This document shows positions 12,031 through 48,581 of a stretch of DNA of 51,760 nucleotides, in pieces (the stretch's first letter is position 1; every line of letters begins with the position of its first letter). Made by a program: the position numbers and the translations under genes. The DNA is from Thermodesulfobacteriota bacterium (GTDB lineage: Bacteria; Desulfobacterota; WTBG01; JAGOGO01), in contig DATEXU010000170.1 in NCBI GenBank assembly GCA_035256645.1, forward strand, positions 1 through 51,760. Reading direction: 5' to 3'. The notes under the pieces were generated by a model. The model made no database searches and was not told where the DNA came from. It saw nothing but the letters and a program-made list of their open reading frames with translations.

Positions 12031-12031
12031 A

Positions 12032-12361: not shown

Positions 12362-12391
12362 GACTTTCCAACCTCCTTTTTAAAAAAATTA

Positions 12392-13355: not shown

Positions 13356-13430
13356 GTCAAAGGTAAGAGCTAAAAATATCCCGTATTGTTTTAGATATTG
13401 AGGTTTGATTTTAAAAACGATAAAAAGAGA

Positions 13431-14966: not shown

Positions 14967-15142
14967 ATTCTTTATTATTTTAAAATTATTGTTATAAAAG
15001 AGCTAAACATTTTTTAATATTAATTAAATAATAAACAAAGAGGAAGTTTTTTATTGTTGGTTTTTTGTTGAAAAAAAATTAATTAAATAACCTTATATCA
15101 CCGAAATTACTTTTTTTAAATAAATTTTATTTTCTATTAATC

Positions 15143-16258
15143 TTAAAAAATATGTTTTTGAATGTGTATATTAATCATCACCCCAACACAAAATAAAGAG
15201 ATCGAAAGCGAAGAACCACCGTAGCTAAAAAGCGGGAGTGTAATCCCGACCGTTGGCAACAAACCAAGGGTCATACCTACATTAATGATAATTTGCCAAA
15301 AAAATAAGGCAGTTATTCCACAACCAAGGAGCAACCCAAAACTATTTTTAGCAGAAGATGTGATAAATAAAAAACGAAAGAGTAAACCAATATAAAGAAA
15401 ACCCAAGACTAACGCTCCAGCAAAACCCCATTCTTCACAAAAAACCGAAAAAACAAAATCAGTATATTTTTCCGGAACAAAATCAAGCTGAGATTGTGTT
15501 CCTTTTAAATAACCTTTTCCAAAAAACTTTCCCGACCCAACCGCAATTTTGGATTGAATGACCTGATAGCCTTTTCCCAAAGGGTCTAAGGAAGGATTTA
15601 AAAAATGGACCACCCGGTCTTTTTGATAATCTTTTAATAAGTGATTCCACGAGAGGGGAAAAAAAAGAAACGCACAAAAAAACAAAATAAAGAGAGTTCG
15701 AAACCGAATTCTTACAAAAAAAACTAAAGAAAAAAAGATTAACACCAAGAGCAACGCAGACCCAAGGTCTGGCTGAAGAAAAATAAGAAAGAAAGGGATG
15801 ATCAAGAAGAAGCCGGGAATAAACAAAGAAGACAAACTAAAACCCCGTGGGTCAAACTTATTTTTAAACCACTTTGCCAAAACAATAATAAGGGAAAGCT
15901 TTATGAACTCGGACGGTTGAACATTAAAAAAACCAAGGGAAAGCCAACGCCGTGACCCAGAAATAAATTTACCCTGAAAAAGAACCAAAACAAGAAGAAA
16001 AATAATGAAAAAATAAAGGAAATAACCAAATTGCTCTAAATACGAATAGTTTAAAAAAGATCCCAAAAACAACAAAACAATCCCCAAAAAAAGCCAATAA
16101 ACCTGTTTTTTATAAACAGCCCCCACGGCGTGAACTGAAACGCTTGCGCTATAAAGATTAAAAATTCCAAAGCCCACAATCAATAGGGCAATAAAAAAAA
16201 GACTCAAATCAAAACGGGTAATCAAGCGCCGATCAAAAAGAAAAAAAGTGGAAAGCAT
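15143..16258 (-). CDS. rodA: rod shape-determining SEDS protein RodA
   Basis: 371 aa and polytopic. FQPSEF.K, DLGSALL, TDFVFSV..EE.GF and LP.TG..LPF.SYGGSS motifs. It follows mrdA. Confidence 0.9.
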   Translation of the reverse strand: MLSTFFLFDRRLITRFDLSLFFIALLIVGFGIFNLYSASVSVHAVGAVYKKQVYWLFLGIVLLFLGSFLNYSYLEQFGYFLYFFIIFLLVLVLFQGKFISGSRRWLSLGFFNVQPSEFIKLSLIIVLAKWFKNKFDPRGFSLSSLFIPGFFLIIPFFLIFLQPDLGSALLLVLIFFSLVFFVRIRFRTLFILFFCAFLFFPLSWNHLLKDYQKDRVVHFLNPSLDPLGKGYQVIQSKIAVGSGKFFGKGYLKGTQSQLDFVPEKYTDFVFSVFCEEWGFAGALVLGFLYIGLLFRFLFITSSAKNSFGLLLGCGITALFFWQIIINVGMTLGLLPTVGITLPLFSYGGSSLSISLFCVGVMINIHIQKHIF

Positions 16259-16260
16259 AT

Positions 16261-25241: not shown

Positions 25242-25814
25242 TTACATTCCCGGTGGCATACCTCCACCTCCACCCATGCCTCCGCCTCCCCAGCCTCCCC
25301 CACCCCTACCTCCGCCCATTCCTCCCCTGCCGCCCGGCCTTTCTCCGCCCATCCCTTGTGGTCCACTTTCCGGTGATCTCGGCTGCAGCTCGTCTTGCAT
25401 CTTTTGATACTCTCTCATCTGTTTTTCTGTCAGGACTGCCGCGAGTTGTTTTTCGGTCGATTCACCAAGGCGTTGCAACTCGCACCTCAAGCAACAGTCC
25501 CCTCCACGGGGTTCTTGTCCTTTATACCTCCCAATAATGTCCTGCTGTTTCTTGCAGTATTCCTCCATTATCGGACGAATTTTTTCTTGCTGCTCATCAG
25601 TGAGGTTAAGTCGGTCTCTCATTGACGCAAGGAGTTCTTCCGGTGTATACTGTGGTAGCGTCATTCCCCCTCCAGGGGGAGCTCCCCTTCGCATCCTTGG
25701 CTGCGAACATGCAACCAGGAAGATGAGCAGGAAAAAGAGCATTATTTTTGGTAAATGTTTTAAAAAACGATGCTTACAAATATATGTGATTGACGATTTG
25801 CTTTCTCCATTCAT
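25242..25814 (-). CDS. LTxxQ-motif (Spy/CpxP/ZraP-like) periplasmic lipoprotein with Gly/Met-rich C-terminal tail
   Basis: Lipobox FLVAC after a basic n-region. LNLTDEQQEKIRPI and VLTEKQMREY are LTxxQ repeats. The tail is GMGGERPGGRGGMGGGRGGGGWGGGGMGGGGGMPPGM. Confidence 0.7.
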   Translation of the reverse strand: MNGESKSSITYICKHRFLKHLPKIMLFFLLIFLVACSQPRMRRGAPPGGGMTLPQYTPEELLASMRDRLNLTDEQQEKIRPIMEEYCKKQQDIIGRYKGQEPRGGDCCLRCELQRLGESTEKQLAAVLTEKQMREYQKMQDELQPRSPESGPQGMGGERPGGRGGMGGGRGGGGWGGGGMGGGGGMPPGM

Positions 25815-37002: not shown

Positions 37003-37048
37003 AATAAATAGAGAAGAATATTCATTGGATAAAAAGACAGGGGGCATC

Positions 37049-37720
37049 ATGAAAATAAAAAAATCTCGTCCAATTCAACAGATAATCGAAGACCAGGTGA
37101 ATAATTGGAAATCTGCCCTTCCGCACAAGGAAGAAAAGAAAATAACGGTAGTTACTATTTCAAGGCAGGCCGGGAGCGGAGGCCATATTTTAGCTCAACG
37201 GGTTGCTCAGAAATTGAGTTTCGATTTCTTTGACCAGGAGATAACCCAAGCAGTGGCTGAAAACGCCCACATGAGAACCTTAGTGGTGGAATCATTGGAC
37301 GAAAAGGGGATTTCTGCGATAGATGACATAATTTCAGCGGTGGTGGAAAAACATCATCTCTGGGGGTACGAATATATGCAGCATCTTTTGAGGGTGATTG
37401 CTACCATAGGAAAACATGGCAACGCAGTGATATTGGGCAGGGGAGCGAATTTTATTCTTCCCCGAGAAGAAATTTTACGGGTAAGGGCGATAGCCCCACT
37501 GGCAGTTCGGGTTAAAAATATTGCCGAGCGGCTTAAGCTTTCTTCTGAACAAGCTAAAGAATACATCCAAAAAATTGAAGTGGAGCGGAAAGATTTTATT
37601 AAGAAATATTTTAAAGCTGACATTGATGATCCAGAAAATAATGATCTGGTGATCAATTTGGAAAAGCTGAGCATAGAGACTGCGATCGAAACAGTAAACG
37701 CCGCCCTGAAATCCTCATAA
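37049..37720 (+). CDS. cytidylate kinase-like family P-loop protein
   Basis: ITVVTISRQAGSGGHILAQRVAQKLSFDFFDQEI is typical of the Cytidylate_kin2 family. The ATG at 37049 follows AGGGGG. Confidence 0.7.
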   Translation: MKIKKSRPIQQIIEDQVNNWKSALPHKEEKKITVVTISRQAGSGGHILAQRVAQKLSFDFFDQEITQAVAENAHMRTLVVESLDEKGISAIDDIISAVVEKHHLWGYEYMQHLLRVIATIGKHGNAVILGRGANFILPREEILRVRAIAPLAVRVKNIAERLKLSSEQAKEYIQKIEVERKDFIKKYFKADIDDPENNDLVINLEKLSIETAIETVNAALKSS

Positions 37721-37934
37721 GCCAGGGAACAACAGCGCTTGCGAAAAAAACAGGGGGGAATTTCCCTGGGGACCCTTTTCTGGCCCCAAAAACTTTTCAT
37801 TGGCCCTCTTTTTCGCCTTCGATTTTTTTTGAGAGATTTTTATTTATTGTTCACAGGACCAGGCATATAAAAAATATTTTATTCGATAAGATATTTGTTA
37901 AGCGTGGAGTATCTTCGCCAAAACCGCAGCCACT

Positions 37935-38828
37935 ATGAGTTCTTATCCAACTAAAATCGCAGTGCTCACCCATGTTAATGATAACTTCGTTTCAGGGCAT
38001 TATTTATTGAGGTTTTTGGTTGAAGCCTGGAAAAATGATGGGGTTGGCATCCGGATTTTGCGCGGCATAGAGCATTTTGAACCAGCGGATGGGTTAATCT
38101 TGCACCCTGATTTGACCATTGTACCCGATGACTATCTTGCCTTTTGCAGGCGCTATCCTCTTGTCATCAATGGGGGTGCGCGGGATATCTCCAAGCGAAA
38201 GATCAGCTCCAGTCTTGTTAACCAAAAAGATTCATATTGTGGGCCGGTGATCGTTAAGAGCAATTTTAACCATGGCGGCAAATCAGAACGAAAAAAAATG
38301 TCTCGGTGGGGACCTTTATATTGGGCGTTAAGCAGCTCGACAAAATGGCTGCCCTGGAGCTGGACTGGACGTTTGCGCCCTCATAACTACCCGATTTTCA
38401 ACTCCTCCCGGGATGTTCCCCGCGCCGCATGGCGTAATCCCCACCTGGTGGTTGAGAAGTTTCTTCCTGAGCGGGAAGGCGCTTATTATTGTTTGAGGCA
38501 GTGGATATTTTTTGGAGACCATGAGATAAATCACCGTATTTTTTCTAAAAGTCCGATTGTCAAAGCAAGCAATACCATAGATCACGAAGATGTGCTACCT
38601 GTTCCCGAGGCACTGCGAGCCTTACGAACAAAACTCCAGTTCGACTACGGTAAATTCGATTACGTCAGTTTTAACGGCGAGGCTATACTTTTGGATGCCA
38701 ACCGTACCCCCACGGTTGCGTGGACTACTCCTACCACACGGCAGGCTTCAATAGTTAACGAACTCGCCCAAGGATTGTTCTCTTTTTTTGCTAAAAAGGC
38801 GGGAGAGCAAGAGGTGGCGGCGCCGTGA
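37935..38828 (+). CDS. hypothetical protein, ATP-grasp-like by motif pattern
   Basis: 297 aa. PVIVKSNFNHGG, HLVVEKFLPE and GKFDYVSFNGEAILLDANRTP fit the ATP-grasp pattern (K-loop, hinge, and an acidic/Asn Mg site). This is weak and assigned by eye only. Confidence 0.35.
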   Translation: MSSYPTKIAVLTHVNDNFVSGHYLLRFLVEAWKNDGVGIRILRGIEHFEPADGLILHPDLTIVPDDYLAFCRRYPLVINGGARDISKRKISSSLVNQKDSYCGPVIVKSNFNHGGKSERKKMSRWGPLYWALSSSTKWLPWSWTGRLRPHNYPIFNSSRDVPRAAWRNPHLVVEKFLPEREGAYYCLRQWIFFGDHEINHRIFSKSPIVKASNTIDHEDVLPVPEALRALRTKLQFDYGKFDYVSFNGEAILLDANRTPTVAWTTPTTRQASIVNELAQGLFSFFAKKAGEQEVAAP

Positions 38829-38920
38829 TGGTATCACGAAATTTCACGGGAGCTCGGTGGCGTCTTACCAATAGAGATGTAAAGCATGCGCCAGAGTCAT
38901 CATGATACCAGGGGTCATGT

Positions 38921-40111
38921 GTGAGCGCTTGGTTGAAACCTATCCAAAGCCTGAGTCAGATATATGGCTCTGATGTGATTTATTCACCACGGGCCTCACC
39001 CAACGCGTGCACCTGGTTGCCCCATGATGAGTTTATCTTGGATAGCATGACCGGCGGACAGATTCCGGTTGCGGGCGATATGTCAATTCTCTGTGCGGCG
39101 AGCGTTTCAACTCCGGAGGGGCTGCAGCTTTTGCGCGACGCGGGATTTAATATTCCGCGGGTGGTGTTCCGTTACTCCGCTGCCGTTGATTATCTGCACA
39201 AACTCAAAAGCCTGTACAAGGAGAGAAAAAAAATAGCCCTCCTCCATGTACATCCAGCTTCTGAACTTCCACCGGAAGCCTGTTGGGTTAAGCCGGAAAC
39301 GTTGTCTTTTCTAAACAACAAGGCGAATCTTGCCACACTGGTTAACCCACGCCATGTGCCTACGCGTCGGACGTTGATGCCCAGTCGCCTTTTTATTGAG
39401 ATCTCGTCTCATCGTTTTCCGCTGGTGGTGAAGGCCGCGACCGACGAATCAAGCGGGGGAGGCGTTGATGTGGTGATCTGCCGGACATCTCGGGGACTGA
39501 AACGGGCTGCAGCCTTGTTTCAGTCTTGTACGCGCGTAGTGATTGAGGAATTCCTTCCGATTAAGAGAAATTTGTGTCTTAACTATGCCGCGACAGCTGA
39601 AGGTGCAATTAATTATTTAGGTTGCGCGGAGCAGGTTAGTGGTGTCCAGGGTAAATACCAGGGGAATTGGATCGACCCTACGACCATGGCTCCCCCTTTG
39701 GCAATAGAGATTGGCGCCAGGGTGGTGGCTGCTGGATTTGCGTTAGGATATTATGGTTGTGTGGGTATTGACATGGCAGTGCTGGAAGATGATCGGATTG
39801 TAGTATTTGACCTGAATTTCCGCGTTAATGGGTCTACCGCCGCGTTGTTGCTTGCCGAGAGCGTGCAGCGCACCTCGGGCCGAACGGTGTTGCGGTTTCG
39901 AGCTTTGCGGGGAAGCGGGACCTATCGTGATCTCTTAAATAGCGCTTATGCCGCCATACACAAGGGTGTCTTTTTGCCCCTTTCCAGTTACGATCCTGAA
40001 GCAGGCGGATATCCAAGAACGCGCCCCCGAATGACTGGCCTGATCCTCGGAAAAACCCGCGAAGAAGCGGAAGAACACGAACGTGAGCTTTCCGCAATGG
40101 GCCTATCATAA
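38921..40111 (+). CDS. ATP-grasp domain protein
   Basis: 396 aa, GTG start. FPLVVKAATDESSGGGVDVV, RVVIEEFLP and GCVGIDMAVLEDDRIVVFDLNFRVNGST. The segment is markedly GC-rich. Confidence 0.6.
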   Translation: MSAWLKPIQSLSQIYGSDVIYSPRASPNACTWLPHDEFILDSMTGGQIPVAGDMSILCAASVSTPEGLQLLRDAGFNIPRVVFRYSAAVDYLHKLKSLYKERKKIALLHVHPASELPPEACWVKPETLSFLNNKANLATLVNPRHVPTRRTLMPSRLFIEISSHRFPLVVKAATDESSGGGVDVVICRTSRGLKRAAALFQSCTRVVIEEFLPIKRNLCLNYAATAEGAINYLGCAEQVSGVQGKYQGNWIDPTTMAPPLAIEIGARVVAAGFALGYYGCVGIDMAVLEDDRIVVFDLNFRVNGSTAALLLAESVQRTSGRTVLRFRALRGSGTYRDLLNSAYAAIHKGVFLPLSSYDPEAGGYPRTRPRMTGLILGKTREEAEEHERELSAMGLS

Positions 40112-40223
40112 GGCAAGAAGTTTGAAGCGAGAGGCAATGACAGAAAGCAGTTTTTTATCCGGTCCTATTCTTTTTTAGATTTGCATGGTATCTTGCGGAA
40201 TGAATATTTTTTGAGGAACCATT

Positions 40224-41714
40224 ATGAAGATTTGTCTCATTGATGCTGCGGCAGCGAACGCAAAAAGGTTTTTGCCCCACTGGACCCCCCTGGGACTGGC
40301 CTATATCGCGGCCACGCTTGAACAAGGGGGTCACGAAGTTTTAATCATAGAGCGGGATGTTCTCTTTAGAAAAAATCGGCTGAGTATCGACAAGGTTGAC
40401 CACATAATGGAGGAAAGGCTCAGGTTTTTCGGCCCCGATTTAATCGGGCTGAGCTCGGCCTCAGAGTTGTTTCCGGATGTAGTGAAATCAGCCCGCATTG
40501 CCAAGACACTTTTTCCTGGTATTCCGGTGGTGTATGGGGGGCACCATGCAAGCGCTGTGTTCACCGAGGCGCTCGAGACATGTAGTGATATTGACATTGT
40601 TGCCGCAGGCGAAGGAGAGGCAACCATGCTTGAATTAGCTAATGGCGCGCGTTATGAGGAGGTTAAGGGTATTTGCTTTAGAAGCGGCGAATCATTAGCC
40701 AAAAATTCTCCGAGGCCGGCCATAGAAGCATTAGATACTTTGCCTATGCCCGCGCGTCATCTTTTAGATATGGATTTTTACACCAAACCATCTCCAAGCT
40801 TGATCAGAAGCGTAACGCTTAAAGCAACAACAATGCTCACTTCCAGAGGATGTCCGTTTAGTTGTAAGTTTTGCGTTGAGTCTCTTCCGGTTGGCAAGAA
40901 ACACCGGGCGCATTCGCCAGCCCGCGTTATTGCTGAGCTTGATCATATCTTAAGGAACTATGATGTTGAGGCGATTTATTTTTTGGACGAAGGATTTTTA
41001 ACCAATGAGCCGAGGGTGAGAGGGTTTTGTGAGATAATGATCAGAGATGGCTACAATCAGAAGGTGAAATGGGCCGCCCAGGTAAGGGTTGATGTTTTGG
41101 ACCCGGATTTGTTGAAGCTGATGAAAGAAGCCGGTTGTATTCAGCTGGAATGTGGCTTTGAAACCGCCTCGGATCGTTTATTGAAAAACGTTAACAAAAA
41201 AACCTCTCAGCAGAAAAACCGAGAGATTGTAGCCTTGATTAAAGCAAACGGTATTCGATGTCTCGCCTATATCATTGCGGGCTTGCCGGGAGAAACCGAG
41301 GAAGAATTCCAGGCTTCGATTGAATTTATCAAGACTTCAGGGGTAGATGCAGTGTCTTTTTCGCAGTTTGTTCCCCACCCCGGATCTGTTTTCTATAATG
41401 AATTGACCCAAAGGGGGGTGCTTCAAAAAGGATTTTGGGAACAGGGTTGGGAAGGTTATAACAACATGAATTTTTCGGCAATGCCCGATGAGCGAGCCAA
41501 GGCACTATATGATCAAGCTCTGAAAAAAGTAATTAAACCTATCAATACAAAAGATCGGATGATGCATATTTCTCTGGGGCAGATGATAAAGAATACCTCC
41601 TTTCGCGAATTGGTCTCGAGAGTTTTTAATGCCCCGCTTTCGTTACCAAGATTTCTTTTTAATTGGATCAAAACAAGGCTTTTGAAAACCGTCCAACCCA
41701 GATCGCGCAGATAA
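40224..41714 (+). CDS. B12-binding-domain radical SAM protein
   Basis: It has an N-terminal Rossmann-like cobalamin-binding domain (KICLID...PLGLAYIAATLEQGGHEV). The CxxxCxxC cluster is TSRGCPFSCKFCVE. 496 aa. Confidence 0.85.
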   Translation: MKICLIDAAAANAKRFLPHWTPLGLAYIAATLEQGGHEVLIIERDVLFRKNRLSIDKVDHIMEERLRFFGPDLIGLSSASELFPDVVKSARIAKTLFPGIPVVYGGHHASAVFTEALETCSDIDIVAAGEGEATMLELANGARYEEVKGICFRSGESLAKNSPRPAIEALDTLPMPARHLLDMDFYTKPSPSLIRSVTLKATTMLTSRGCPFSCKFCVESLPVGKKHRAHSPARVIAELDHILRNYDVEAIYFLDEGFLTNEPRVRGFCEIMIRDGYNQKVKWAAQVRVDVLDPDLLKLMKEAGCIQLECGFETASDRLLKNVNKKTSQQKNREIVALIKANGIRCLAYIIAGLPGETEEEFQASIEFIKTSGVDAVSFSQFVPHPGSVFYNELTQRGVLQKGFWEQGWEGYNNMNFSAMPDERAKALYDQALKKVIKPINTKDRMMHISLGQMIKNTSFRELVSRVFNAPLSLPRFLFNWIKTRLLKTVQPRSRR

Positions 41715-41950: not shown

Positions 41951-43054
41951 CTAAGAAAACGAGACACCGGTCTTTTTTTTAATAAGATGTTCAAAATAAC
42001 TGCGGCGTAAAAATATACCCACGCTTTTGTAGAAAAGGAAAGGGTTATCTAACAAGAAAACATGCATATACTTTTTCAAGCTCTTGGGTTGCAATCCGTC
42101 TCTTACCAAGAGAAGCCTGGTGGGCAAAAGTAAGGTCGAGAAAAAACCAGGATTTAATTTTTTCAAAAAAGAATCAGAAATTGGTGTTCTTAGGAGCTGC
42201 CGGCAATAGGCGAGGCAGTAGTAGAGCGCTTTGCGGCAATGATTTTCGCGGGCATACATTGCAATATGCTCCCAATCAATAACAGCCTCATATTTTCTTA
42301 TGAGGAGGTCTATATCGCAAAACATCATCAACCGGTCAAAGTTATGGTTGGCAGCGCAATGGAGAATGAGAAAAAACAGATTAGCCTCCACCGGGAGGCA
42401 GGGAATAGAGAAGTCGTTATAGTGTACCCATAAGAGGTTATCCCAAAAGCCCTTAAAATCAAAACCGGAAACCTTGGCCCACGGGTTGGCATTAAACTCG
42501 ACATGAAGCTCAACGATCAGTTTTTTCCCTTCATTCGGTTTAACAAATTTGACTTCTCCGATGTAGGTCATCTCGTATTGTTCATAAACAGGGTGGAGCA
42601 GGCAGTACCCGATCTCTTCCAGCAGGGATTTTGCCCGGGTATAGTCTTCCTTTTTTATGAGAAGGTCAAAATCTCCGCCACAGGGCCTGAGCTCTGGTTT
42701 AGGGTATACCAGAGCAGAGAGCCCCAACCCTTTATGAACTGCAAAGGATAGCTCGTTCTGCCCGAGATGAGCCACAATCTCTTTTAAGGCTTTTTCAAAC
42801 AAAAGACCGAGAGCGGAATTGCCAATATATTCTCGGGCAAGACATTTTGTTACCTTTTGGGGAAAGACGATTTGCTTGTTTTGTTGGAGGGCATTATAGA
42901 GGAGGGGGGCTATTCCATGGTAGCTCATCATGGCAGCAACCTTCTCCCAGTCGAGGTTCTGGGATAAGGAGCTGGTGACACCTTCCCAGGACTCGTATCC
43001 AAGGGAAGCCCTCAAAAAGGAAAGAATAAACTGCTGTTCTTTGGTTAGCCACAT
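41951..43054 (-). CDS. NTP_transf_5-type nucleotidyltransferase family protein
   Basis: The ATG at 43054 (MWLTKEQQFILSFL...) overlaps the upstream stop as TAATG. GGDFDLLIKKEDYTRAKSLLEEIGY is the family's catalytic-Asp block. The track ORF extends to 43120. Confidence 0.7.
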   Translation of the reverse strand: MWLTKEQQFILSFLRASLGYESWEGVTSSLSQNLDWEKVAAMMSYHGIAPLLYNALQQNKQIVFPQKVTKCLAREYIGNSALGLLFEKALKEIVAHLGQNELSFAVHKGLGLSALVYPKPELRPCGGDFDLLIKKEDYTRAKSLLEEIGYCLLHPVYEQYEMTYIGEVKFVKPNEGKKLIVELHVEFNANPWAKVSGFDFKGFWDNLLWVHYNDFSIPCLPVEANLFFLILHCAANHNFDRLMMFCDIDLLIRKYEAVIDWEHIAMYARENHCRKALYYCLAYCRQLLRTPISDSFLKKLNPGFFSTLLLPTRLLLVRDGLQPKSLKKYMHVFLLDNPFLFYKSVGIFLRRSYFEHLIKKKTGVSFS

Positions 43055-44088
43055 TAGAAAATTGATTCCACAAGCACGGGGAGACTTTGGATATCGGCGC
43101 CCAGTTTTACTTTGTAACAATCGGTGGATTTTATTAAGTCAAAGATAATGTCAAAGTGCTGTCTGGCGATCTCTTTATCAAAGGCAAGAAGACTGTGGGG
43201 GAGAAAAGTTTTTAGCGCTTCGCTCTTTGGAAAAACTTCTAAGGAACTTTTTTTGACCGCAGAAATCTCCGGGAAGAGAATTAACTTCGGCACACAGGAG
43301 TCCCTCGTGGAGCCGGGATAAAGTTCTTCAGCATTAAAGCTCTGCTTTCTGAGGTTTCGGTTGTCTAAGAAAAGACGATAGCTCCTTAATTCAGGGAAAA
43401 GCTGAATAGTATAATCAGTGACGTCAATTGGCTCGGGAAAAGAAAGAAGCTCCAACCCACCACTTTTATTATACCGCAGCATAGGTCTATCGTCTCCGAG
43501 AAATCCAAACCCCTGCCTTATAAGGGCAACACAGGACGTAGTTTTTCCTGCTCCGGAAAACCCCGGAAATATTATCCCCTGCCCATTTTTTTCTACCCCA
43601 GAACAGTGGGCGAGAAAGTACCCCTTCCCTTTTAATAATTCGGCTAATAAAAAAATAAAAACAAAGCTGGAAATAAGGTTGGGATTAATCGCCTCCGGTT
43701 CTTTTAAATAACCCTCCGCCACACCTTTTTTCATGCTGTAAGAAAAAAGCCCGGTAGTTCCAAAGCCTGCATAATACGTAAAATCATCTTCATTTACATA
43801 GAGGCTCATCTTATCAATTCCAAATTCTTTTATATCGAACAAGTCTTCTTCAGAAGAAGAATACAATAGTTTTAAACCGGAAGGAATTATTCCCTGATGA
43901 GCAATATCATCGGGTTTATCGAAAAAAGTGATAGTTAAACCTTCTGGGGGTGTACTGAGTGTTTTTTCACAAAGAAAATATTCGAGGAGTTTGTTGATAG
44001 CAGAAAAAACATGTAAGTTATTTGAGATAAACTTGAGGGGGATGCCATGAATAAGGTAATGTGCGGTTAAGTGGTTCTTTTTTGTCAA
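43054..44088 (-). CDS. HPr kinase C-terminal-domain-like (HprK-related) P-loop kinase
   Basis: LAHCSGVEKNGQGIIFPGFSGAGKTTSCVALIRQGFGFLGDD matches the HprK pattern H....v...g.GvLi.G.SG.GKS..al.Li.rG..lv.DD. It has a TTG start and no obvious SD. Confidence 0.75.
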   Translation of the reverse strand: MTKKNHLTAHYLIHGIPLKFISNNLHVFSAINKLLEYFLCEKTLSTPPEGLTITFFDKPDDIAHQGIIPSGLKLLYSSSEEDLFDIKEFGIDKMSLYVNEDDFTYYAGFGTTGLFSYSMKKGVAEGYLKEPEAINPNLISSFVFIFLLAELLKGKGYFLAHCSGVEKNGQGIIFPGFSGAGKTTSCVALIRQGFGFLGDDRPMLRYNKSGGLELLSFPEPIDVTDYTIQLFPELRSYRLFLDNRNLRKQSFNAEELYPGSTRDSCVPKLILFPEISAVKKSSLEVFPKSEALKTFLPHSLLAFDKEIARQHFDIIFDLIKSTDCYKVKLGADIQSLPVLVESIF

Positions 44089-44100
44089 TGGTGTGCCTAT

Positions 44101-44129
44101 AAAAAAAGACCCGATTTCTTACGTGGGTC
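44101..44129 (-). terminator. weak hairpin plus U7 tract between the precursor array and the kinase gene (possible attenuator)
   Basis: Minus strand: GACCC-acguaagaaauc-GGGUC followed by UUUUUUU. The stem is only 5 bp. It ends 12 nt before the kinase TTG start. Confidence 0.3.
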
Positions 44130-44280
44130 CTTAAAAATTAAAATTTATTAGACCTGGTCAGGTTCTCGTTCTTGGAAGGTTAGAAAAAACAAGCCTCTTT
44201 TTCTTTCCTCAAGTTTCTTTTATTAGGAAAATCTCGGCTTAAGTACCGTTTGCGCAACTGCCCTAAGACAACCTTGATTA

Positions 44281-44382
44281 CTATCTGGTTGCTACTAATG
44301 CGGTGATGTCCTTGAGATGACCTTCTTTAGCAAGCTCAGGTTTTTCGTAGGGTTCTTTTATTTGAGTTTTGATTTTGTTCAT
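44281..44382 (-). CDS. RiPP precursor-like peptide P1 (33 aa)
   Basis: Own translation: MNKIKTQIKEPYEKPELAKEGHLKDITA/LVATR. An AGGAG RBS is present. Contains the YxxPxLx3Gx5Tx signature. Confidence 0.7.
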   Translation of the reverse strand: MNKIKTQIKEPYEKPELAKEGHLKDITALVATR

Positions 44383-44403
44383 TTTTGCTCCTGCCTTTCG
44401 CCC

Positions 44404-44502
44404 TTAACTTTTTGTCATGCTTTGGGTAACATCTTTGAGGGCCCCTTCTTTGACAAGCGCCGGTTTTTCGTAGGGTTTGACCTCAGGCTTTGTCTTTTCC
44501 AT
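44404..44502 (-). CDS. RiPP precursor-like peptide P2 (32 aa)
   Basis: MEKTKPEVKPYEKPALVKEGALKDVTQ/SMTKS. The RBS is AAGGAGG. Confidence 0.7.
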   Translation of the reverse strand: MEKTKPEVKPYEKPALVKEGALKDVTQSMTKS

Positions 44503-44569
44503 ATTATTACCTCCTTTAATAGCCAAAAATATTATACGCTCCGCTGGGTATTTTGACCTTTGATCCACT

Positions 44570-44680
44570 CTATTTAAAAGTTCCCGGTGCTCCAGCGGTA
44601 ATGTCTTTGAGCTGACCTTCTTTAGTAAGCACAGGTTTCTCGTAAGCTTCCTTTTTCACTTCTAATCTCATTTCCTTCAT
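44570..44680 (-). CDS. RiPP precursor-like peptide P3 (36 aa)
   Basis: MKEMRLEVKKEAYEKPVLTKEGQLKDITA/GAPGTFK. The RBS is GGAGGAGG. Confidence 0.7.
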   Translation of the reverse strand: MKEMRLEVKKEAYEKPVLTKEGQLKDITAGAPGTFK

Positions 44681-44714
44681 TTTAACCTCCTCCTTTAATG
44701 CAAACCAACTAATT

Positions 44715-44825
44715 TTATTTATCAACTAGCGTTGCTTGTCCTGTGATGTCCTTGAGCTGGCCTTCTTTGGTAAGCTCAGGTTTTTCGTAAGCCTCTTTTT
44801 TTACTTCTGGTTTGGCATCCTTCAT
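44715..44825 (-). CDS. RiPP precursor-like peptide P4 (36 aa)
   Basis: MKDAKPEVKKEAYEKPELTKEGQLKDITG/QATLVDK. The RBS is AAGGAGGG. Confidence 0.7.
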   Translation of the reverse strand: MKDAKPEVKKEAYEKPELTKEGQLKDITGQATLVDK

Positions 44826-44938
44826 CTAGATCCCTCCTTTTAATTTTAACAATAAATCCTTTAAGCTCACCGTAACAAGAAATAGACATTATGCAGAAGC
44901 CTTGCCTTGGGAAAACAGTACGATAATAATCCTCTGTC

Positions 44939-45052
44939 TTAATCATTCGGCTTTACTGTTCCCCCCGCAGTAATATCCCTTAGGGTGCCCTCTTTAAAGA
45001 TTTCAGGTTTTTCGTAGGCTTCTTTTTTGACATCTGGTTTAGCATCTCTCAT
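44939..45052 (-). CDS. RiPP precursor-like peptide P5 (37 aa)
   Basis: MRDAKPDVKKEAYEKPEIFKEGTLRDITA/GGTVKPND. The RBS is AAGGAGGG. Confidence 0.7.
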   Translation of the reverse strand: MRDAKPDVKKEAYEKPEIFKEGTLRDITAGGTVKPND

Positions 45053-45165
45053 CTAAATCCCTCCTTTTAATTTTAACAACAAATCCTTTAAGCTCACCTT
45101 AACAAAAAATAGATATTATACAGAAGCCTTGCCTTGGGAAAACAGTACGATAATAATCCTCTGTT

Positions 45166-45276
45166 TTAATCAGACGCAGTTATGTCTCCCGCAGTAATAT
45201 CCCTTAGGTTGCCCTCTTTAAAGATTTCTGGTTTTTCGTAAGTTTCCTTTTTCACTTCTGGTTTAGTTTCTTTCAT
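45166..45276 (-). CDS. RiPP precursor-like peptide P6 (36 aa)
   Basis: MKETKPEVKKETYEKPEIFKEGNLRDITA/GDITASD. The RBS is AAGGAGG. Confidence 0.7.
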   Translation of the reverse strand: MKETKPEVKKETYEKPEIFKEGNLRDITAGDITASD

Positions 45277-45332
45277 CCTAAAACCTCCTTTTAAAAAACC
45301 GGGTTCCCCTTTATTATCAAGGTCCTAAAAAA

Positions 45333-45361
45333 TTTATAAAAGAATATCTTGCTTCTTGTAA
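45333..45361 (-). promoter_or_regulatory. candidate internal sigma70-like promoter upstream of P6
   Basis: Minus strand: TTACAA (45361-45356), 17-nt spacer, TATAAA (45338-45333). Confidence 0.3.
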
Positions 45362-45448
45362 GGTTCAGGGCGAAGATAAATCTACTCCTTCCCCTTTTCA
45401 ACCCTCTGTTTTCGGTAAGATTTAGACTTACACAAGCACCCTAAAGTG

Positions 45449-45556
45449 TCAAACATCTGCTTTGGTTGTAAATGCTGTGATGTCTTTGAGAAGGCCTTCT
45501 TTGGTAAGTATAGGTTTTTCGTAAGACTCTTTGACCTCTGGTTTTGCTTCTTTCAT
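45449..45556 (-). CDS. RiPP precursor-like peptide P7 (35 aa)
   Basis: MKEAKPEVKESYEKPILTKEGLLKDITA/FTTKADV. The RBS is AAGGAGGA. Confidence 0.7.
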   Translation of the reverse strand: MKEAKPEVKESYEKPILTKEGLLKDITAFTTKADV

Positions 45557-45630
45557 CTCGTGAGTTCCTCCTTTTTAATTTGGCTCTCCTTTTTTACCAA
45601 TTTTTTAGAAAATGTCAAGCAATTTTAAGA

Positions 45631-46053
45631 TCACGGATAGACAAAAGTAATTTGATATTCGCCAGAAGGATCGTTTTGTTCAGGAAAATGCCTCCCTTCA
45701 ACAATAAGCCAGGCATGTCCTTTGAGCTTCTCCTCTTCGTTTTTGACCCCAAAAACAAGCTTGACTTTCCTGCCCATTATCCGTAAGTGCCTAAAAAGTA
45801 AAATTGATCTCAGCAAACAGGGATTTGAGCTTCTGAATAAACGAAAAAGGATAAAATTGGTAAATTTTAATATGTATTCAATTTTTGAGTCGTCAGGGGG
45901 TACCTTTTTTTCAGGGTCGAGGAGCTTTAAAAGTTTAGGAAGCTTGATTAGATAAAGAAGAACCTTTATGGCAATCAGGGAAAAGAAAGTCTTAATAAAA
46001 AGAATGATGTCCTTTGGTCTTTTGAAATACTTAATATTATTCAGATTTATCAT
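45631..46053 (-). CDS. transglutaminase-like cysteine peptidase of the lasso-peptide B2 type (Transglut_core3)
   Basis: NPCLLRSILLFRHLRIMGRKVKLVFGVKNEEEKLKGHAWLIVEGRHF matches the family pattern C.{2}RS..l...Lr..G.......GV......HAW.e..G (Cys and His of the catalytic triad). The ATG at 46053 overlaps the PqqD gene by 17 nt. The track start at 46089 is also possible. Confidence 0.75.
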   Translation of the reverse strand: MINLNNIKYFKRPKDIILFIKTFFSLIAIKVLLYLIKLPKLLKLLDPEKKVPPDDSKIEYILKFTNFILFRLFRSSNPCLLRSILLFRHLRIMGRKVKLVFGVKNEEEKLKGHAWLIVEGRHFPEQNDPSGEYQITFVYP

Positions 46054-46333
46054 TGAGTTCGACGAGCCCCTCCTTTTTAAAATTAGCAATCAAGGCAAAA
46101 ACATCTTTTGATGCCTCATCTTTGGTGACATCAAAGCTCTCGGTGAGCAATTCAACAAGCTGGTTAACAGCGATTTTTCCATCCAACAAAGACCAAATAA
46201 ATGTGCCGGTTTTATTGAGGGTATAATAGCTTCCATTTTCAAGGTTTAACAGCACGCTTTTTGATTCAATTTCCTTATGGACTACCTCTTTGCCTTTAGC
46301 GGGGTACTTTTCCGAAAGGTCTTTAGTGTTCAT
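46037..46333 (-). CDS. PqqD-family RiPP recognition element protein (lasso B1-like)
   Basis: 98 aa. VLLNLENGSYYTLNKTGTFIWSLLDGKIAVNQLVELLTESFDV..DEASKDVFALIANFKKEGLV is the PqqD wing-helix pattern. The RBS is AAGGAGG. Confidence 0.8.
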   Translation of the reverse strand: MNTKDLSEKYPAKGKEVVHKEIESKSVLLNLENGSYYTLNKTGTFIWSLLDGKIAVNQLVELLTESFDVTKDEASKDVFALIANFKKEGLVELNDKSE

Positions 46334-46386
46334 TGAGAGCCTCCTTGAAAAAAATCACAATATAAAAAGCTTATAATAGTATTGTT

Positions 46387-47235
46387 TCACCCGGTTACCA
46401 CGACATAATCTTCTTCGCTCTGCGCGCCAAGCCCCAGTTTTTTTGCGAAGGCGATCTGGGGAAGTTCCCAGATGGGCATATCGAGCCGGTTCTTTGCTTT
46501 GAACGACATGAGTATTTTAAGGGCCTCAACGTCCAGGGCAACGAGGTCGGAGGAGGCAAAAATAAGATGTGCTTTTTTTCTCCTTCCTCTTGCCGGCCCG
46601 CCCGTCACCAGACATTTTCTTGCGTCAAGGATAATAAGATCGGGTTTGATGGCGAGATTTATCTCTACCACTTTTTCTTCAAGGCGTTCATCGTGGAGCA
46701 TTCTTCTTGAAAAAGGCTCGGTAAGGCCTACAGCAAACTTAAGGCCCATGCTAAAGCGGGCAAAAGCGTGCGTCTTTAGATTAGAAAGATAAATGATTTT
46801 GTCTGAATCTAAGGCAGCCTTGGCAAGCAAGACAGCCTTAAGGTGGACACCATTGATGGGAACACTTACCCATTCCCCCTCATCAAAGTTGATGAGCTTG
46901 ATCGCAAGTTCTTCTGCCAGCTTAAACACTTTCTTTTTTTTTAATACTTTTTCGGTAGGTTGCCAGGCTAATCCACTGCTTGCTCCGAGAGCGATCTCCG
47001 TGACGCCGGACTCCTGAAGGAGGGTTACTACAGCCCTAATAAATTCAGGATCAGAGGAAGCGGGGTACCGGTCAGGGCTGTTGAAGTTTGCTTTTATGAG
47101 TACTTTATCGTCAGGGGAAACGAACTTGGGAAAACCCCCTATCAATGCTACAGCCTTGTCTACTGCGGCTTTAAGGTCTCCTTTTGCGGCAACCTTGCTT
47201 ACCAGTATTTTTGATTTATTGTTATTAGAAAGCAT
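46387..47235 (-). CDS. DUF362 domain-containing protein
   Basis: 282 aa. DKVLIKANFNSP, SNLKTHAFARFSMGLK, IILDARKCLVTGGP..G and ASSDLVALDVEA follow the DUF362 pattern. Confidence 0.7.
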   Translation of the reverse strand: MLSNNNKSKILVSKVAAKGDLKAAVDKAVALIGGFPKFVSPDDKVLIKANFNSPDRYPASSDPEFIRAVVTLLQESGVTEIALGASSGLAWQPTEKVLKKKKVFKLAEELAIKLINFDEGEWVSVPINGVHLKAVLLAKAALDSDKIIYLSNLKTHAFARFSMGLKFAVGLTEPFSRRMLHDERLEEKVVEINLAIKPDLIILDARKCLVTGGPARGRRKKAHLIFASSDLVALDVEALKILMSFKAKNRLDMPIWELPQIAFAKKLGLGAQSEEDYVVVTG

Positions 47236-47248
47236 GCAGCCATTTTTT

Positions 47249-47353
47249 ATACCAAGTCGCCTTCATGTGCATATCTTTGTTGTCTCCTCGTCATACTCCT
47301 CGACGTCGATTCCTCGTCCCTGACTCGATCTGCTTTTGAATGCAACCTGGTAT
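47249..47353 (+). repeat. 105-nt interspersed TIR repeat, copy C
   Basis: ATACCAAGTCGCCTTCAtgtgcatatctttgttgtctcctcgtcatactcctcgacgtcgattcctcgtccctgactcgatctgcttTTGAATGCAACCTGGTAT. It begins 14 nt upstream of the DUF362 start codon. Confidence 0.9.
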
Positions 47354-47475
47354 TAGAAGTGACATTATAATAAAAACACCTTATCAAAGTTCAAAAAATT
47401 TTTAAAAGGAATTTATAGTGAACGACATAAATAAAAAAGCATCCTTTTTGCCATGCCGTGATCCCCGCCATTGTC

Positions 47476-47570: not shown

Positions 47571-47634
47571 GACGTCGGAGAACCGGGGTGGAATGAGAGC
47601 AGTATCTTCTTTGTCAACTTATTTATGTCGTTCA

Positions 47635-47979
47635 CTATAGTTGTCGTTCAATATTTTTAATAAAGGATTTCATTTCGTTCATGCTGATGCCCTTGCAAAG
47701 AATGAGCTTACGGCGAGAGGTTTTCATCTTCAGGATTTCAATGTTGGATTTTCTTATCCGGAGAGCTTGAGATAAAAGCTCGATCAAGGCCTCGTTAGCC
47801 GCACCTTCTACAGGCGGTGCAGTTACTTTAACCTTGAGAGCTCCTTCGCTAAACCCGACAACCTCGTTTTTTTTAGACCTTGGCCGGACAATTACCGGAA
47901 AGGTGACGCCGCTCTCATGGGCTCGGATTTTGAGGGAGATGGTTTTTGGAGCTTCACACCAAGTCGCCTTCATGTGCAT
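47635..47979 (-). CDS. yggU: DUF167 (YggU) family protein; start codon lies inside a repeat element
   Basis: ISLKIRA....FPVIVRPRSKKNEVVGFSEGALKVKVTAPPVEGAANEALIELLSQAL matches the YggU pattern (...v.V.P.a.k..i.g.....lkv.v.apP.dG.AN..l...L...). The only in-frame ATGs (47979, 47973) fall within repeat copy D. Confidence 0.75.
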   Translation of the reverse strand: MHMKATWCEAPKTISLKIRAHESGVTFPVIVRPRSKKNEVVGFSEGALKVKVTAPPVEGAANEALIELLSQALRIRKSNIEILKMKTSRRKLILCKGISMNEMKSFIKNIERQL

Positions 47980-48060
47980 ATCTTTGTTGTCTCCTCGTCA
48001 TACTCCTCGACGTCGATTCCTCGTCCCTGACTCGATCTGCTTTTGAATGCAACGTGGTAT
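47956..48060 (+). repeat. 105-nt interspersed TIR repeat, copy D
   Basis: ACACCAAGTCGCCTTCA...TTGAATGCAACGTGGTAT has an interior identical to copy C. It fills the entire divIVA-yggU gap. Confidence 0.9.
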
Positions 48061-48581
48061 CAGGATTCGCTCGGAGGTTTTTCTTCTGGTTCACGGACTT
48101 CTTTTTCGGAAGGTGATTCGAGGAGTCTTAAGTGGGTTTCTAAGAGAAATCGTAGTTCCTGCTTTAATATTATTTTTTTTCTTTTTAATTCATTGACTTC
48201 TTCCTGGATTTTGACTAACCGGCTGTTGGTTCCCGCGATCATTTTTTCTGCTTGTTCTCGGGCATGGGCAAGAATAAAGGTTGCTTCTTTCTCGGTATTT
48301 GTTTTTAATTCTTCGATAGCTTTTTGAGCATTTTTTTTCATTTCCTCGGACGTAGCCTGAGCCATAAGCAAGGTCTCTTTCAGGGTCTTTTCCATGTTGT
48401 GGTATTCCCCGATGCGCGCTTCTTTTCTTTCCAGCTCTTCTCTCAGTTCCTTGTTTATTTTTACCAGGTCTTCCAGTTCACTGGCTACGGTTTCTAAAAA
48501 AGAGTCAACCTCATTGGTGTCGAACCCTCGGAACCGAACGGAGAACTGTTGTTGTTGAATATCAAGAGGTGTTAGTTTCAT
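48060..48581 (-). CDS. divIVA: DivIVA domain-containing protein
   Basis: MKLTPLDIQQQQFSVRFRGFDTNEVDSFLETVASELEDL followed by a coiled coil. Confidence 0.9.
   Translation of the reverse strand: MKLTPLDIQQQQFSVRFRGFDTNEVDSFLETVASELEDLVKINKELREELERKEARIGEYHNMEKTLKETLLMAQATSEEMKKNAQKAIEELKTNTEKEATFILAHAREQAEKMIAGTNSRLVKIQEEVNELKRKKIILKQELRFLLETHLRLLESPSEKEVREPEEKPPSES

Follow-up and report, generated by a model that had tools for sequence, protein, structure and literature searches.

The minus strand of a 51.76-kb contig from the MAG of a sulfate-reducer-type bacterium (Thermodesulfobacteriota), the whole of which is referred to here as the window, carries a locus that we read, with a probability of about 60%, as a biosynthetic cluster whose products are ribosomal peptides, very short, linear and modified, and which is built from the half of the lasso pathway that handles the leader. 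Its gene set comprises a DUF362 protein, a PqqD-type RRE (B1), a lasso B2 peptidase, seven small open reading frames (ORFs), a kinase and an NTP_transf_5 enzyme. The evidence supports the operation of the B1/B2 half, together with a lasso-type kinase and NTP_transf_5, without a cyclase and on precursors too short for a lasso; this arrangement is conserved and selected across several phyla.

Gene content and precursor array

The locus and its neighbourhood contain the following features (related loci bear L numbers).

46387..47235 (−): DUF362 protein, first gene of the operon (PF04015, E 1e-42)
46037..46333 (−): PqqD-type RRE, lasso B1-like (PF05402, E 1e-19)
45631..46053 (−): B2 transglutaminase-fold cysteine peptidase (NF033537 lasso_biosyn_B2, 50.5 bits, above the cut-off of 33)
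45449..45556 (−): precursor 1, leader ...YEKPILTKEGLLKDITA, core FTTKADV
45166..45276 (−): precursor 2, core GDITASD (identical in L098, GEITASD in L093)
44939..45052 (−): precursor 3, core GGTVKPND (identical in L010, L092 and L098, with different leader N-termini)
44715..44825 (−): precursor 4, core QATLVDK (LSTLVDK in L098)
44570..44680 (−): precursor 5, ATG 44680, core GAPGTFK (GVPGTFK in L098)
44404..44502 (−): precursor 6, ATG 44502, core SMTKS (SMTKS in L093, SMTTS in L091)
44281..44382 (−): precursor 7, core LVATR (LVATR also in L098)
44776..45294 (no strand): 227-bp tandem repeat, 2.3 copies with 87% matches; duplicated precursor cassettes
43054..44088 (−): HprK/PEPCK-fold P-loop kinase (TIGR04352, E 2e-16, 59.8 bits, under the cut-off of 200)
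41951..43054 (−): NTP_transf_5 nucleotidyltransferase-fold enzyme, PsmN/LppN-like (PF14907, E 5e-46)
40224..41714 (+): B12-binding radical SAM enzyme, convergent with the operon (PF02310 and PF04055)
38921..40111 (+): LdmS-like ATP-grasp ligase (NF047900, 224.8 bits, under the cut-off of 475)

The positions of all six large genes agree with those of a first-pass annotation of this DNA, and the matches to PF05402, NF033537 and PF14907 bear out its assignments, including those of the 46037 and 45631 products as PqqD and B2 homologues; overlooked in it were two probable cluster members of this clade, the convergent B12-binding radical SAM gene and, by its functional linkage, DUF362. The PqqD protein finds its top NCBIfam match in lasso_PqqD_Bac (63 bits, under the cut-off of 80). 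B2 starts at ATG 46053, the longest ORF beginning at TTG 46089, and both its Shine-Dalgarno sequence and its overlap with the end and stop of the PqqD gene are read directly in the sequence; its Cys79 and His113 are invariant in 107/107 family members.

The HprK-like identity of the kinase is recovered by TIGR04352 but not by Pfam Hpr_kinase_C, which scores only 20 bits, under its gathering score; precomputed annotation places the protein in the Pfam ScmC family PF27840. Its AlphaFold model (pLDDT 88.6) matches the folds of PEPCK (E 4e-9) and HprK/P (E 2e-6), and the His, Lys, Asp and Asp that are essential in lasso-tailoring kinases (PMC9266682) are invariant in 145/145 members. Direct reading confirms the proposed TAATG overlap, which couples the kinase gene translationally to that of NTP_transf_5; in the latter enzyme, the GGDFD motif retains its Asp148 in 109/114 members.

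Each of the seven small ORFs (45556 to 44281) is preceded by an AGGAGG-type Shine-Dalgarno sequence and encodes 32–37 residues that include, in agreement with the first reading, an exact lasso leader YxxPxLx3Gx5Tx (7/7, with Thr at −2) and only 5–8 residues after T-x; the same motif, sought in the remaining ORFs of the window, gave no further match. Comparison of precursors from related genomes shows cores that are kept and leader N-termini that drift, with substitutions enriched at third codon positions (93, versus 45 at first and 55 at second positions), both of which speak for the small ORFs being genuine genes.

Conservation of the cassette among relatives

The same cassette is present in about 150 loci of nitrifiers, methane oxidisers and soil bacteria belonging to Thermodesulfobacteriota, Nitrospirota, Methylomirabilota and Acidobacteriota, and thus seems to be a widespread, uncharacterised route to very short modified linear peptides. 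Its parts are inherited together: among 66 related loci flanked on both sides by 3 kb or more of sequence (well-flanked loci), PqqD, B2 and NTP_transf_5 surround the kinase in 62, motif-bearing precursors lie beside the same enzymes in 59, and a cyclase is found in none. The expectation that the small ORFs would be conserved in relatives, within B1/B2/kinase loci lacking a cyclase, is borne out by these counts.

Of the 185 distinct precursors of the family, all but one retain Thr-2 (184) and 182 have a hydroxyl residue at core positions 2–5; their core lengths range from 3 (FSF, Acidobacteriota) to about 40 in Nitrospira (mostly 9–29). Loci of the window's clade contain 2–7 precursors each; in the Acidobacteriota branch, the core is the tripeptide FSF or FTF in 13/13 distinct precursors; and the L010 cores REQ and GVRELK have no hydroxyl residue whatever. 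L001 carries the locus at the same position among housekeeping genes, with a kinase only 61% identical to that of the window. Some relatives have frameshifted NTP_transf_5 or ATP-grasp genes (L010, L008).

Such frameshifts and a few degenerate-looking cores (REQ in L010) would suit a decaying lasso-cluster remnant, in which the cyclase has been lost and the small ORFs are functionless truncated relics. This reading is already disfavoured, and scarcely credible, in view of catalytic residues that are invariant over 107–145 homologues from several phyla, the conservation of cassette and leader motif in 58/66 well-flanked loci, and precursors that are tandemly duplicated, have strong Shine-Dalgarno sequences and share cores across genomes. 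As the leader is far more conserved across phyla than the tail, it could instead be the functional product or a regulator, controlled by a variable tail acting as a removable or phosphorylatable tag; this is very unlikely, since recognition by the RRE and B2 (YxxP, Thr-2) fully accounts for leader conservation, as in lasso peptides and LPPs (see below), orthologous tails are conserved among related genomes, and Acidobacteriota keep the FSF tail unchanged.

Cyclase, exporter and neighbouring genes

A Pfam/ORF survey of the 51.76-kb window detects no Asn-synthetase-type cyclase, as first claimed: the sole PF00733 signal comes from QueC (Asn_synthase model 23 bits, QueC model 249 bits), and all ORFs of at least 430 aa, like nearly all others, are housekeeping. 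Among relatives, 166 records (1.82 Mb) yielded no cyclase in any of three tests, in which they were searched by phmmer with AsnB, by phmmer with a genuine lasso cyclase and for the PP-loop signature SGGxDS; as a control, the B. thuringiensis lasso cyclase, which carries SGGLDS, was picked up at E 6e-13. QueC is also the only Asn_synthase match in the Pfam tables of five loci, and none of the ~150 family loci has a cyclase within 8–10 kb. The original picture of lasso leader and protease machinery lacking a cyclase thus stands in its gene set, its motif and the window-wide absence of the enzyme.

Clusters of the paeninodin and pseudomycoidin type have precisely B1, B2, kinase and NTP_transf_5 as their accessory set, and the cyclase search in the MAG covers this contig, so that a canonical paeninodin-type phosphorylated lasso pathway, whose cyclase, possibly along with precursors of normal length, would lie at another genomic site, deserves consideration. 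It is extremely unlikely: cores of 5–8 residues cannot give a 7–9-membered ring plus a threaded tail, just 2/7 have an Asp at positions 7–9, the leader on the seven local precursors is the cognate one, and the family-wide negative was obtained with a control that was detected. Moreover, paeninodin-type kinases modify a conserved C-terminal Ser (PMC9266682), whereas only 1/7 window cores has a Ser at its end.

The ORFs of the window include no exporter, ABC or otherwise, this negative for the MAG likewise covering the 51.76-kb contig. The earlier statement to this effect holds for the window's clade but not for the family, since an ABC exporter lies no more than 7 kb from the kinase in 42 of ~80 loci fetched from genome assemblies, mostly Nitrospira; in the two loci inspected, this exporter is directly beside B2. 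The absence of an exporter from the window's clade, which leaves the products no evident destination, weighs against the peptide reading.

The AlphaFold model of DUF362 (pLDDT 92.7) has nickel-pincer LarA/malate racemases as its best PDB folds (E 3e-7, TMq 0.55), and the protein accompanies the cassette in the window, L001, L009, L010, L093, L095, L105 and L173. Orthologues of the B12-binding radical SAM enzyme (own HMM, E <1e-180) occupy the same position in L001, L010, L088, L093, L095, L099, L105 and L173; in L009, the orthologue lies directly upstream of the precursors and forms one operon with them and DUF362, and in L105 and L173 both genes again accompany the cassette, there in other genomic surroundings. 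The enzyme is probably a cluster member in the window's clade. Against membership, its gene is read from the other strand and might be part of an adjoining cytidylate-kinase-like operon. The LdmS-like ligase, found only in relatives with a kinase at least 87% identical (L010, L088, L093, L095, L099) and absent from L001, L105 and L173, is a possible lineage-specific accessory.

These neighbours bear on whether the locus encodes a peptide-derived small-molecule or cofactor pathway, in which the tail would be a scaffold rebuilt by the B12-binding radical SAM enzyme, DUF362, kinase and NTP-transferase and released by B2; following the logic of PQQ, mycofactocin or pearlins, the end product would be a small molecule that is no longer a peptide or has been extensively rearranged. 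The small-molecule racemase fold of DUF362, the missing exporter in the window's clade, stable vertical inheritance among housekeeping genes (same position in L001) and the strict FSF/FTF core of Acidobacteriota, typical of one defined product rather than a library, are consistent with it. We consider it unlikely nonetheless, because cores in the window's clade and Nitrospira are hypervariable and multicopy (seven differing ones in the window), which argues for a peptide family, and the studied kinase and NTP_transf_5 homologues merely decorate a Ser side chain.

Proposed pathway and comparison with known systems

For short peptides made by the cyclase-free machinery, characterised homologues suggest the following pathway. 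The seven translated precursors would be bound by B1 through their YEKPxL motif, and the kinase may then phosphorylate the leader-bearing precursor, perhaps repeatedly, on a Thr or Ser 3–5 residues past the cleavage site. NTP_transf_5 may decorate that phosphate with a hexose, as in the pseudomycoidin homologue, or possibly with a nucleotidyl group, and in the window's clade the B12-binding radical SAM enzyme and LarA-fold DUF362 might add further modifications of unspecified kind; their roles, like the biological function of the products, are conjectural. The B1/B2 cysteine peptidase would finally cut past Thr-x to give a 5–8-residue product, with no macrolactam or lasso expected because the cyclase is missing and the cores are too short. 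Phosphorylation or nucleotidylylation is proposed by homology, and the locus is best read as making a short, linear and probably phosphorylated product.

Among published systems, the nearest is that of the linear polyphosphorylated peptides (LPPs; Popov et al., Nat Commun 2026, PMC13381572), a cyclase-free family with RRE, HprK-like kinase and NTP-transferase reported only from Bacillota, in which LppK polyphosphorylates Ser3 ahead of cleavage (PMC13381572). The hydroxyl at core positions 2–5 parallels this Ser3 and is thus the likely acceptor position. Weighing against phosphorylation of Thr, which most window cores offer, LppK rejected substrates with Ser3 changed to Thr or Tyr (PMC13381572), and the few clade cores without a hydroxyl (REQ, GVRELK in L010) weigh against a kinase acceptor there. 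The decoration step must be set against the inactivity of LppN in a heterologous host (PMC13381572) and the putative nature of the PsmN reaction, by which a hexose follows the phosphate added by PsmK in pseudomycoidin (PMC6993621).

The suggestion that the small ORFs are the substrate class of the HPr-rel-A system (TIGR04352 kinase plus PqqD-family partner) does not hold: the kinases are distantly related, and a Vibrio example has its kinase beside a nucleotidyltransferase-family gene, but the window's kinase falls far below the TIGR04352 cut-off (59.8 versus 200 bits), its PqqD protein has no match to the HPr-rel-A PqqD model, and that single, incompletely annotated Vibrio example lists no B2 peptidase or precursor array, pointing to a different family. 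SynChlorMet (ScmC/ScmD with radical SAM/SPASM enzymes) shares the PF27840 kinase assignment, a PqqD-type partner and, in some branches of the window's family (L005, L009), a radical SAM enzyme; unlike it, the window has no SPASM enzymes, and its proteins score only 19.5 bits against ScmC (cut-off 125) and 45 bits against ScmD (cut-off 100). To our knowledge, B2 and NTP_transf_5 are not recognised as Scm components.

Paeninodin and pseudomycoidin clusters have the same split B1/B2, PsmN-like NTP_transf_5, lasso leader with Thr-2 and HprK-like His-Lys-Asp-Asp kinase acting on the leader-bearing precursor, but also the Asn-synthetase-type cyclase and ABC exporter that the window lacks; the window's cores are too short for a lasso, and their acceptor cannot be a conserved C-terminal Ser.

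LPPs, likewise cyclase-free kin of phosphorylated lasso clusters with a linear product, combine a discrete RRE for a YxxP leader with an HprK-like kinase and an NTP_transf-type enzyme, and place Ser3 just past the cleavage site, where the window's family keeps its hydroxyl; in the FSF branch, Thr and Ser stand exactly as far apart (T-x-x-S) as they do in LPPs. They differ in using a signal peptidase I of the SipW-like type, with its cut immediately behind Thr, instead of B2 with a cut expected after Thr-x, in having an MsbA-like exporter, in the 35–200-aa length of their precursors (characterised core 45 aa) against window cores of 5–8 aa, in a kinase that rejected Thr and in being reported only from Bacillota rather than the four phyla found here, whereas the window's clade adds the B12-binding radical SAM enzyme and DUF362. 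With LPPs already published, the system is not wholly undescribed, as the first-pass annotation had it, but it differs from them in peptidase, core length and taxa. The locus is probably a cyclase-free, lasso-derived and, by homology, phosphorylated RiPP cluster, new in its dependence on B2 and its ultrashort cores.

Genes of the cluster and searches for a cyclase and an exporter

The first-pass annotation had described the minus strand between 47235 and 41951 as the leader-recognition and proteolysis half of a lasso peptide pathway that lacks its cyclase. That observation is borne out by the domain scores of the individual proteins, by the leader motif of all seven small ORFs and by the recurrence of the gene set in related loci. 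The gene order is DUF362, PqqD-type RRE, B2 peptidase, seven small ORFs, kinase and NTP_transf_5; as read from the sequence, B2 begins before PqqD has ended, and TAATG holds both the stop codon of the kinase and the start codon of NTP_transf_5.

Genes of the cluster and two neighbours on the opposite strand
46387-47235, minus strand: DUF362 protein (PF04015, E 1e-42)
46037-46333, minus strand: PqqD-type RRE, or B1 (PF05402, E 1e-19)
45631-46053, minus strand: lasso B2 peptidase, a transglutaminase-fold Cys peptidase (NF033537, 50.5 bits against a cut-off of 33)
43054-44088, minus strand: HprK-related kinase (TIGR04352, E 2e-16, far under the trusted cut-off)
41951-43054, minus strand: NTP_transf_5 protein, or NTP5 (PF14907, E 5e-46)
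40224-41714, plus strand: B12-binding radical SAM gene, convergent with the operon
38921-40111, plus strand: LdmS-like ATP-grasp gene, found in close relatives only

Because a PDB sequence search with the DUF362, NTP5 and kinase proteins gave no significant match, fold searches took its place. The best folds for the AlphaFold model of the kinase (pLDDT 88.6) are PEP carboxykinases (E 4e-9) and HprK/P (E 2e-6), and the model confirms a PEPCK/HprK fold. Its His161, Lys182, Asp199 and Asp200 are invariant in 145/145 members, and the corresponding His-Lys-Asp-Asp residues are essential in lasso-tailoring kinases (PMC9266682); Cys79 and His113 of B2 are likewise invariant in all 107 sequences compared.

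Each of the seven small ORFs is preceded by an AGGAGG-type ribosome-binding site and carries the exact lasso leader signature Y-x-x-P-x-L-x3-G-x5-T-x. The NCBIfam lasso-leader models match them weakly and under cut-off (NF033521, 12.6-17.1 bits vs 19). The residues following T-x form cores of 5-8 residues, namely FTTKADV, GDITASD, GGTVKPND, QATLVDK, GAPGTFK, SMTKS and LVATR. Three of the ORFs lie within a 227-bp tandem repeat, and the array therefore grew by duplication.

The window is a complete contig (51.76 kb) of a Thermodesulfobacteriota MAG. No PF00733-type lasso cyclase is encoded on this contig, whose only Asn_synthase signal belongs to QueC, as does the one in the related locus L002. 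Pfam scans of the window took in all ORFs of 200 aa or more, apart from 11578-12153 in the ATP-synthase operon, as well as several shorter ones. Besides two ORFs with no Pfam match (37935-38828 and 25242-25814), they found ordinary chromosomal genes outside the cluster, including ComEC, ATP synthase, PBP2/RodA/MreBC, DnaN, PpiD, PurA, SerA, QueCE, DsrC, DivIVA, CoaX, NadC and ValS. The cyclase search was extended to 166 related records (1.82 Mb) by phmmer with E. coli AsnB, phmmer with a genuine lasso cyclase and a scan for the PP-loop (SGGxDS), and none of the three detected a lasso cyclase there. The positive control, the SGGLDS-bearing cyclase of a lasso cluster on the B. thuringiensis plasmid pBT62A, was detected by AsnB at E 6e-13. 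In that control record (L169) a weak match to the kinase HMM (3910-4866, E 4e-6) lies upstream of the exporter, B1, B2 and cyclase, and the cluster is therefore probably of the paeninodin type.

No exporter was found on the contig. In 42 of about 80 loci fetched from genome assemblies, mostly from Nitrospira, the kinase has an ABC exporter no more than 7 kb away. This exporter directly adjoins B2 in the Nitrospira loci L013 and L076, where the large ORFs beside B2 had been suspected of being hidden cyclases until Pfam identified them as ABC exporters.

An anti-phage defence role was rejected, as no core protein has a PADLOC match. The region has no Rfam match to a structured RNA, and a scan for promoters and terminators gave a result not above shuffled expectation.

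Spread of the cassette and its precursor cores

The cassette is not a one-off and is far more widespread than the window suggests. Close relatives of the kinase occur in freshwater and sediment metagenomes, and relatives at 35-38% identity in Nitrospira (including Ca. N. defluvii), Methylomirabilis and others. The Pfam-annotated neighbourhoods of five diverse homologues all lack a lasso cyclase and contain PqqD, Transglut_core3, small unannotated ORFs, a ScmC-family kinase and NTP_transf_5. Searches with our own HMMs placed the kinase in 150 loci. Of these, 66 have 3 kb or more of flanking sequence on each side; PqqD, B2 and NTP5 are all present in 62 of the 66, and one or more motif-bearing precursors in 59. 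A tblastn search of plasmids with the window B2 gave no match.

Core length differs between branches. In the clade of the window 52/54 cores have 3-8 residues (median 7), and Methylomirabilis cores have 5-10; those of Nitrospira mostly span 9-29 residues and begin with xxSG, IQLSRV or QKYREK. Soil contigs of Thermoanaerobaculia (Acidobacteriota) carry a compact operon of precursor, PqqD, B2, kinase and NTP5 genes, in which an invariant tripeptide closes the precursor (M.KKAYRKPSLRRLGLLRQVTR followed by FSF, or FTF). On these figures, very short cores are genuine and conserved, and do not stem from truncation. The soil-metagenome loci L117-L159 (for example L138, 6792-9705) have a precursor of about 24 aa in which LGLLRQVTR, ending in the Thr-x, is followed by FSF or FTF; kinases of this Thermoanaerobaculia/Acidobacteriota type form 572 clusters at E<=1e-20.

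Among 185 distinct family precursors, 184 have the leader Thr at position -2 and 182 have Ser, Thr or Tyr at core positions 2-5, the hydroxyl residue in the window's clade being mostly Thr. Orthologous cores, among them GGTVKPND, GDITASD and LVATR, are shared by genomes with different leaders, and substitutions are most frequent at the third codon position (93, vs 45 at the first and 55 at the second). This bias, the precursor conservation and the invariance of the catalytic residues read, at the level of sequence comparison, as signs of selection.

Several loci show further arrangements. In Nitrospira, the cassette is present in enrichment-cultured or complete-genome nitrifiers, such as Ca. 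Nitrospira defluvii (L021; FP929003.1, 1330402-1351373) and Nitrospira sp. NFB02 (L076; AP038806.1), and in many other Nitrospira loci, at times in two tandem copies; a GMC oxidoreductase, a RimK-like ATP-grasp enzyme or a fatty-acid hydroxylase are further neighbours. In locus L003, a second, divergent set adjoins the main cassette (12144-16530), consisting of PqqD (148 aa), a ScmC-like kinase and NTP_transf_5. Three family-2 glycosyltransferase genes on the other strand are interspersed among them, a hint of glycosylated variants. Methylomirabilis and some further branches encode, between B2 and the precursors, a radical SAM enzyme of about 366 aa that is not of the B12 type (L005, 6480-7580; L023, 856-1998; L009, 8995-9997, this last copy apparently split by a frameshift).

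Neighbouring genes and a proposed route to short linear peptides

DUF362 and the B12-radical-SAM gene are probable additional members of the cluster in this clade. In L001 (kinase 61% identical, same chromosomal position) the cassette comes with DUF362 and with an orthologue of the B12-radical-SAM gene, as it does in L105 and L173, which have different chromosomal contexts; in the more distant L009 (36% identity) these two genes and the precursors make up a single operon. More distant DUF362 homologues occur in archaea in unrelated contexts. The DUF362 model (pLDDT 92.7) resembles the nickel-pincer-cofactor racemases LarA/Mar, including malate racemase (Foldseek E 3e-7, TMq 0.55). The protein has only 282 aa, with Lys154-Thr-His156 and His181 invariant among 40 homologues, and we treat the predicted likeness to LarA as a lead, not as a functional assignment.

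On the plus strand of the window, genes for a cytidylate-kinase-like protein, a 297-aa protein with no family match, the LdmS-like ATP-grasp ligase and the B12-radical-SAM enzyme form an apparent operon (37025-41714), of which the L001 counterpart has only the kinase-like and radical-SAM genes. The B12-radical-SAM enzyme matches the PADLOC candidate model PDC-M51A (E 7e-26), probably through generic radical-SAM similarity. At the 5' border of the cluster, a 111-nt direct repeat (96% identical) occurs immediately 5' of the DUF362 start (47246-47356) and at the DivIVA stop/DUF167 start (47953-48063), and a 40-nt inverted repeat pair (47395-47434 / 47619-47658) lies in the interval from DUF167 to DUF362, which is only 32 nt in L001; these repeats look like a local duplication or a MITE-like insertion.

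The lasso-tailoring kinases PadeK, ThcoK and PsmK act on a Ser while the leader is still attached to the precursor, and often phosphorylate it more than once; PsmN then adds a hexose to the phosphate (PMC9266682, PMC6993621). In the linear polyphosphorylated peptide (LPP) systems of Bacillota, the kinase polyphosphorylates core Ser3 before an RRE-assisted peptidase removes the leader (PMC13381572). Because these characterised homologues act in this way, we propose a similar scheme here, in which the RRE would bind YEKPxL, Thr or Ser at core positions 3-5 would be phosphorylated, and the NTP_transf_5 protein would decorate the phosphate. The B12-radical-SAM enzyme and DUF362 might modify the peptide further in a clade-specific manner, and B2 would cut after Thr-x to release a product of 5-8 residues. 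By this route we infer a linear, probably phosphorylated product, with the caveats that the LPP kinase LppK rejects Thr and Tyr at the acceptor position (PMC13381572) and Thr is what is mostly offered here, that two cores of the close relative L010 contain no hydroxyl residue, and that the window has no exporter.

Taken across the family, the PqqD-B2-kinase-NTP5 cassette may define a phylum-spanning, unrecognised RiPP class, a reading to which we give slightly less than even odds (about 0.45). Its members would be ultrashort (3-8 residues) phospho-peptides, possibly glyco- or nucleotidyl-phospho-peptides, cut by B2 from lasso-type leaders; one version would be a strictly conserved Phe-Ser-Phe tripeptide in soil Acidobacteriota, and others hypervariable and multi-copy in sulfate-reducer-type bacteria and nitrifiers. 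If this is true, the products would be among the smallest RiPPs, could serve as signals, cofactor-like molecules or cell-envelope decorations, and would belong to environmentally dominant, hard-to-culture bacteria, while the LarA-fold DUF362 protein and the B12-radical-SAM enzyme would contribute reactions so far without precedent on lasso-type leaders. Nitrospira (with Ca. N. defluvii, a nitrifier in enrichment culture), Methylomirabilis and soil Acidobacteriota of high abundance all carry the cassette, so the products could bear on nitrifier and soil-community biology and are experimentally reachable. For enzymology, new handles would be an HprK-like peptide kinase putatively acting on Thr, a PsmN-like enzyme whose substrate is minimal and the occurrence of a LarA-fold protein in a RiPP setting.

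Relation to known systems

The interpretation first placed on the cluster, a candidate undescribed RiPP system whose small ORFs might be the missing substrate class of the HPr-rel-A system, was largely right; what fails is the tie to HPr-rel-A and the claim that the system is wholly new. The kinase scores 59.8 bits against the TIGR04352 cut-off of 200, the PqqD protein has no match to that system's model at E<=0.01, members from Acidobacteriota and Nitrospira also miss the HPr-rel-A cut-offs, and a true HPr-rel-A locus, carried by a Vibrio plasmid, does not look like this cluster. Membership of SynChlorMet was likewise rejected (ScmC, 19.5 vs 125 bits; ScmD, 45.1 vs 100), and the window encodes no SPASM enzyme; ScmE/F of that cassette are radical SAM/SPASM enzymes.

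With lasso clusters the window shares the leader with Thr at -2, in all seven ORFs, and the PqqD-type RRE and B2, but two defining features are missing, the PF00733 cyclase and the core length. Whereas a lasso ring of 7-9 residues closes on Asp or Glu and is followed by a threaded tail, the window cores have 5-8 residues in all, and the two of seven with Asp at core positions 7-9 have no tail beyond it. The HprK-like kinase with His-Lys-Asp-Asp is also a feature of paeninodin-type clusters; the conserved C-terminal Ser acceptor of those clusters, however, is absent from the window cores as a set, with Ser terminating SMTKS alone and V, D, D, K, K and R the other six. In this family the lasso B1/B2 module appears as a portable unit of leader recognition and removal, used without ring formation. 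RRE-Finder reported about half of some 8,000 lasso-type discrete RREs as lacking a peptidase and cyclase partner, treating them as possible false positives without resolving them (PMC7470986), and the present family accounts for part of this "dark matter".

The closest precedent is LPP, described in 2026; our literature search found only that paper and lasso reviews, and no description of a B2-dependent short-core cassette. The discrete RRE, HprK-like kinase and NTP-transferase without a cyclase that define LPP (PMC13381572) are all present in the window. [quoted passage not shown] The LPP core cluster further includes an MsbA-like exporter, unlike the window contig. In LPP a Ser near the core start is (poly)phosphorylated before leader removal; in the window's clade the hydroxyl residue near the core start is mostly Thr. 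The family carries the LPP concept outside Bacillota, adds a second type of peptidase and brings the core down to as few as three residues. In summary, the cluster belongs with the lasso-derived systems for linear (phospho)peptides that dispense with a cyclase and were recognised only recently; among them its B2-dependent, short-core form is new.
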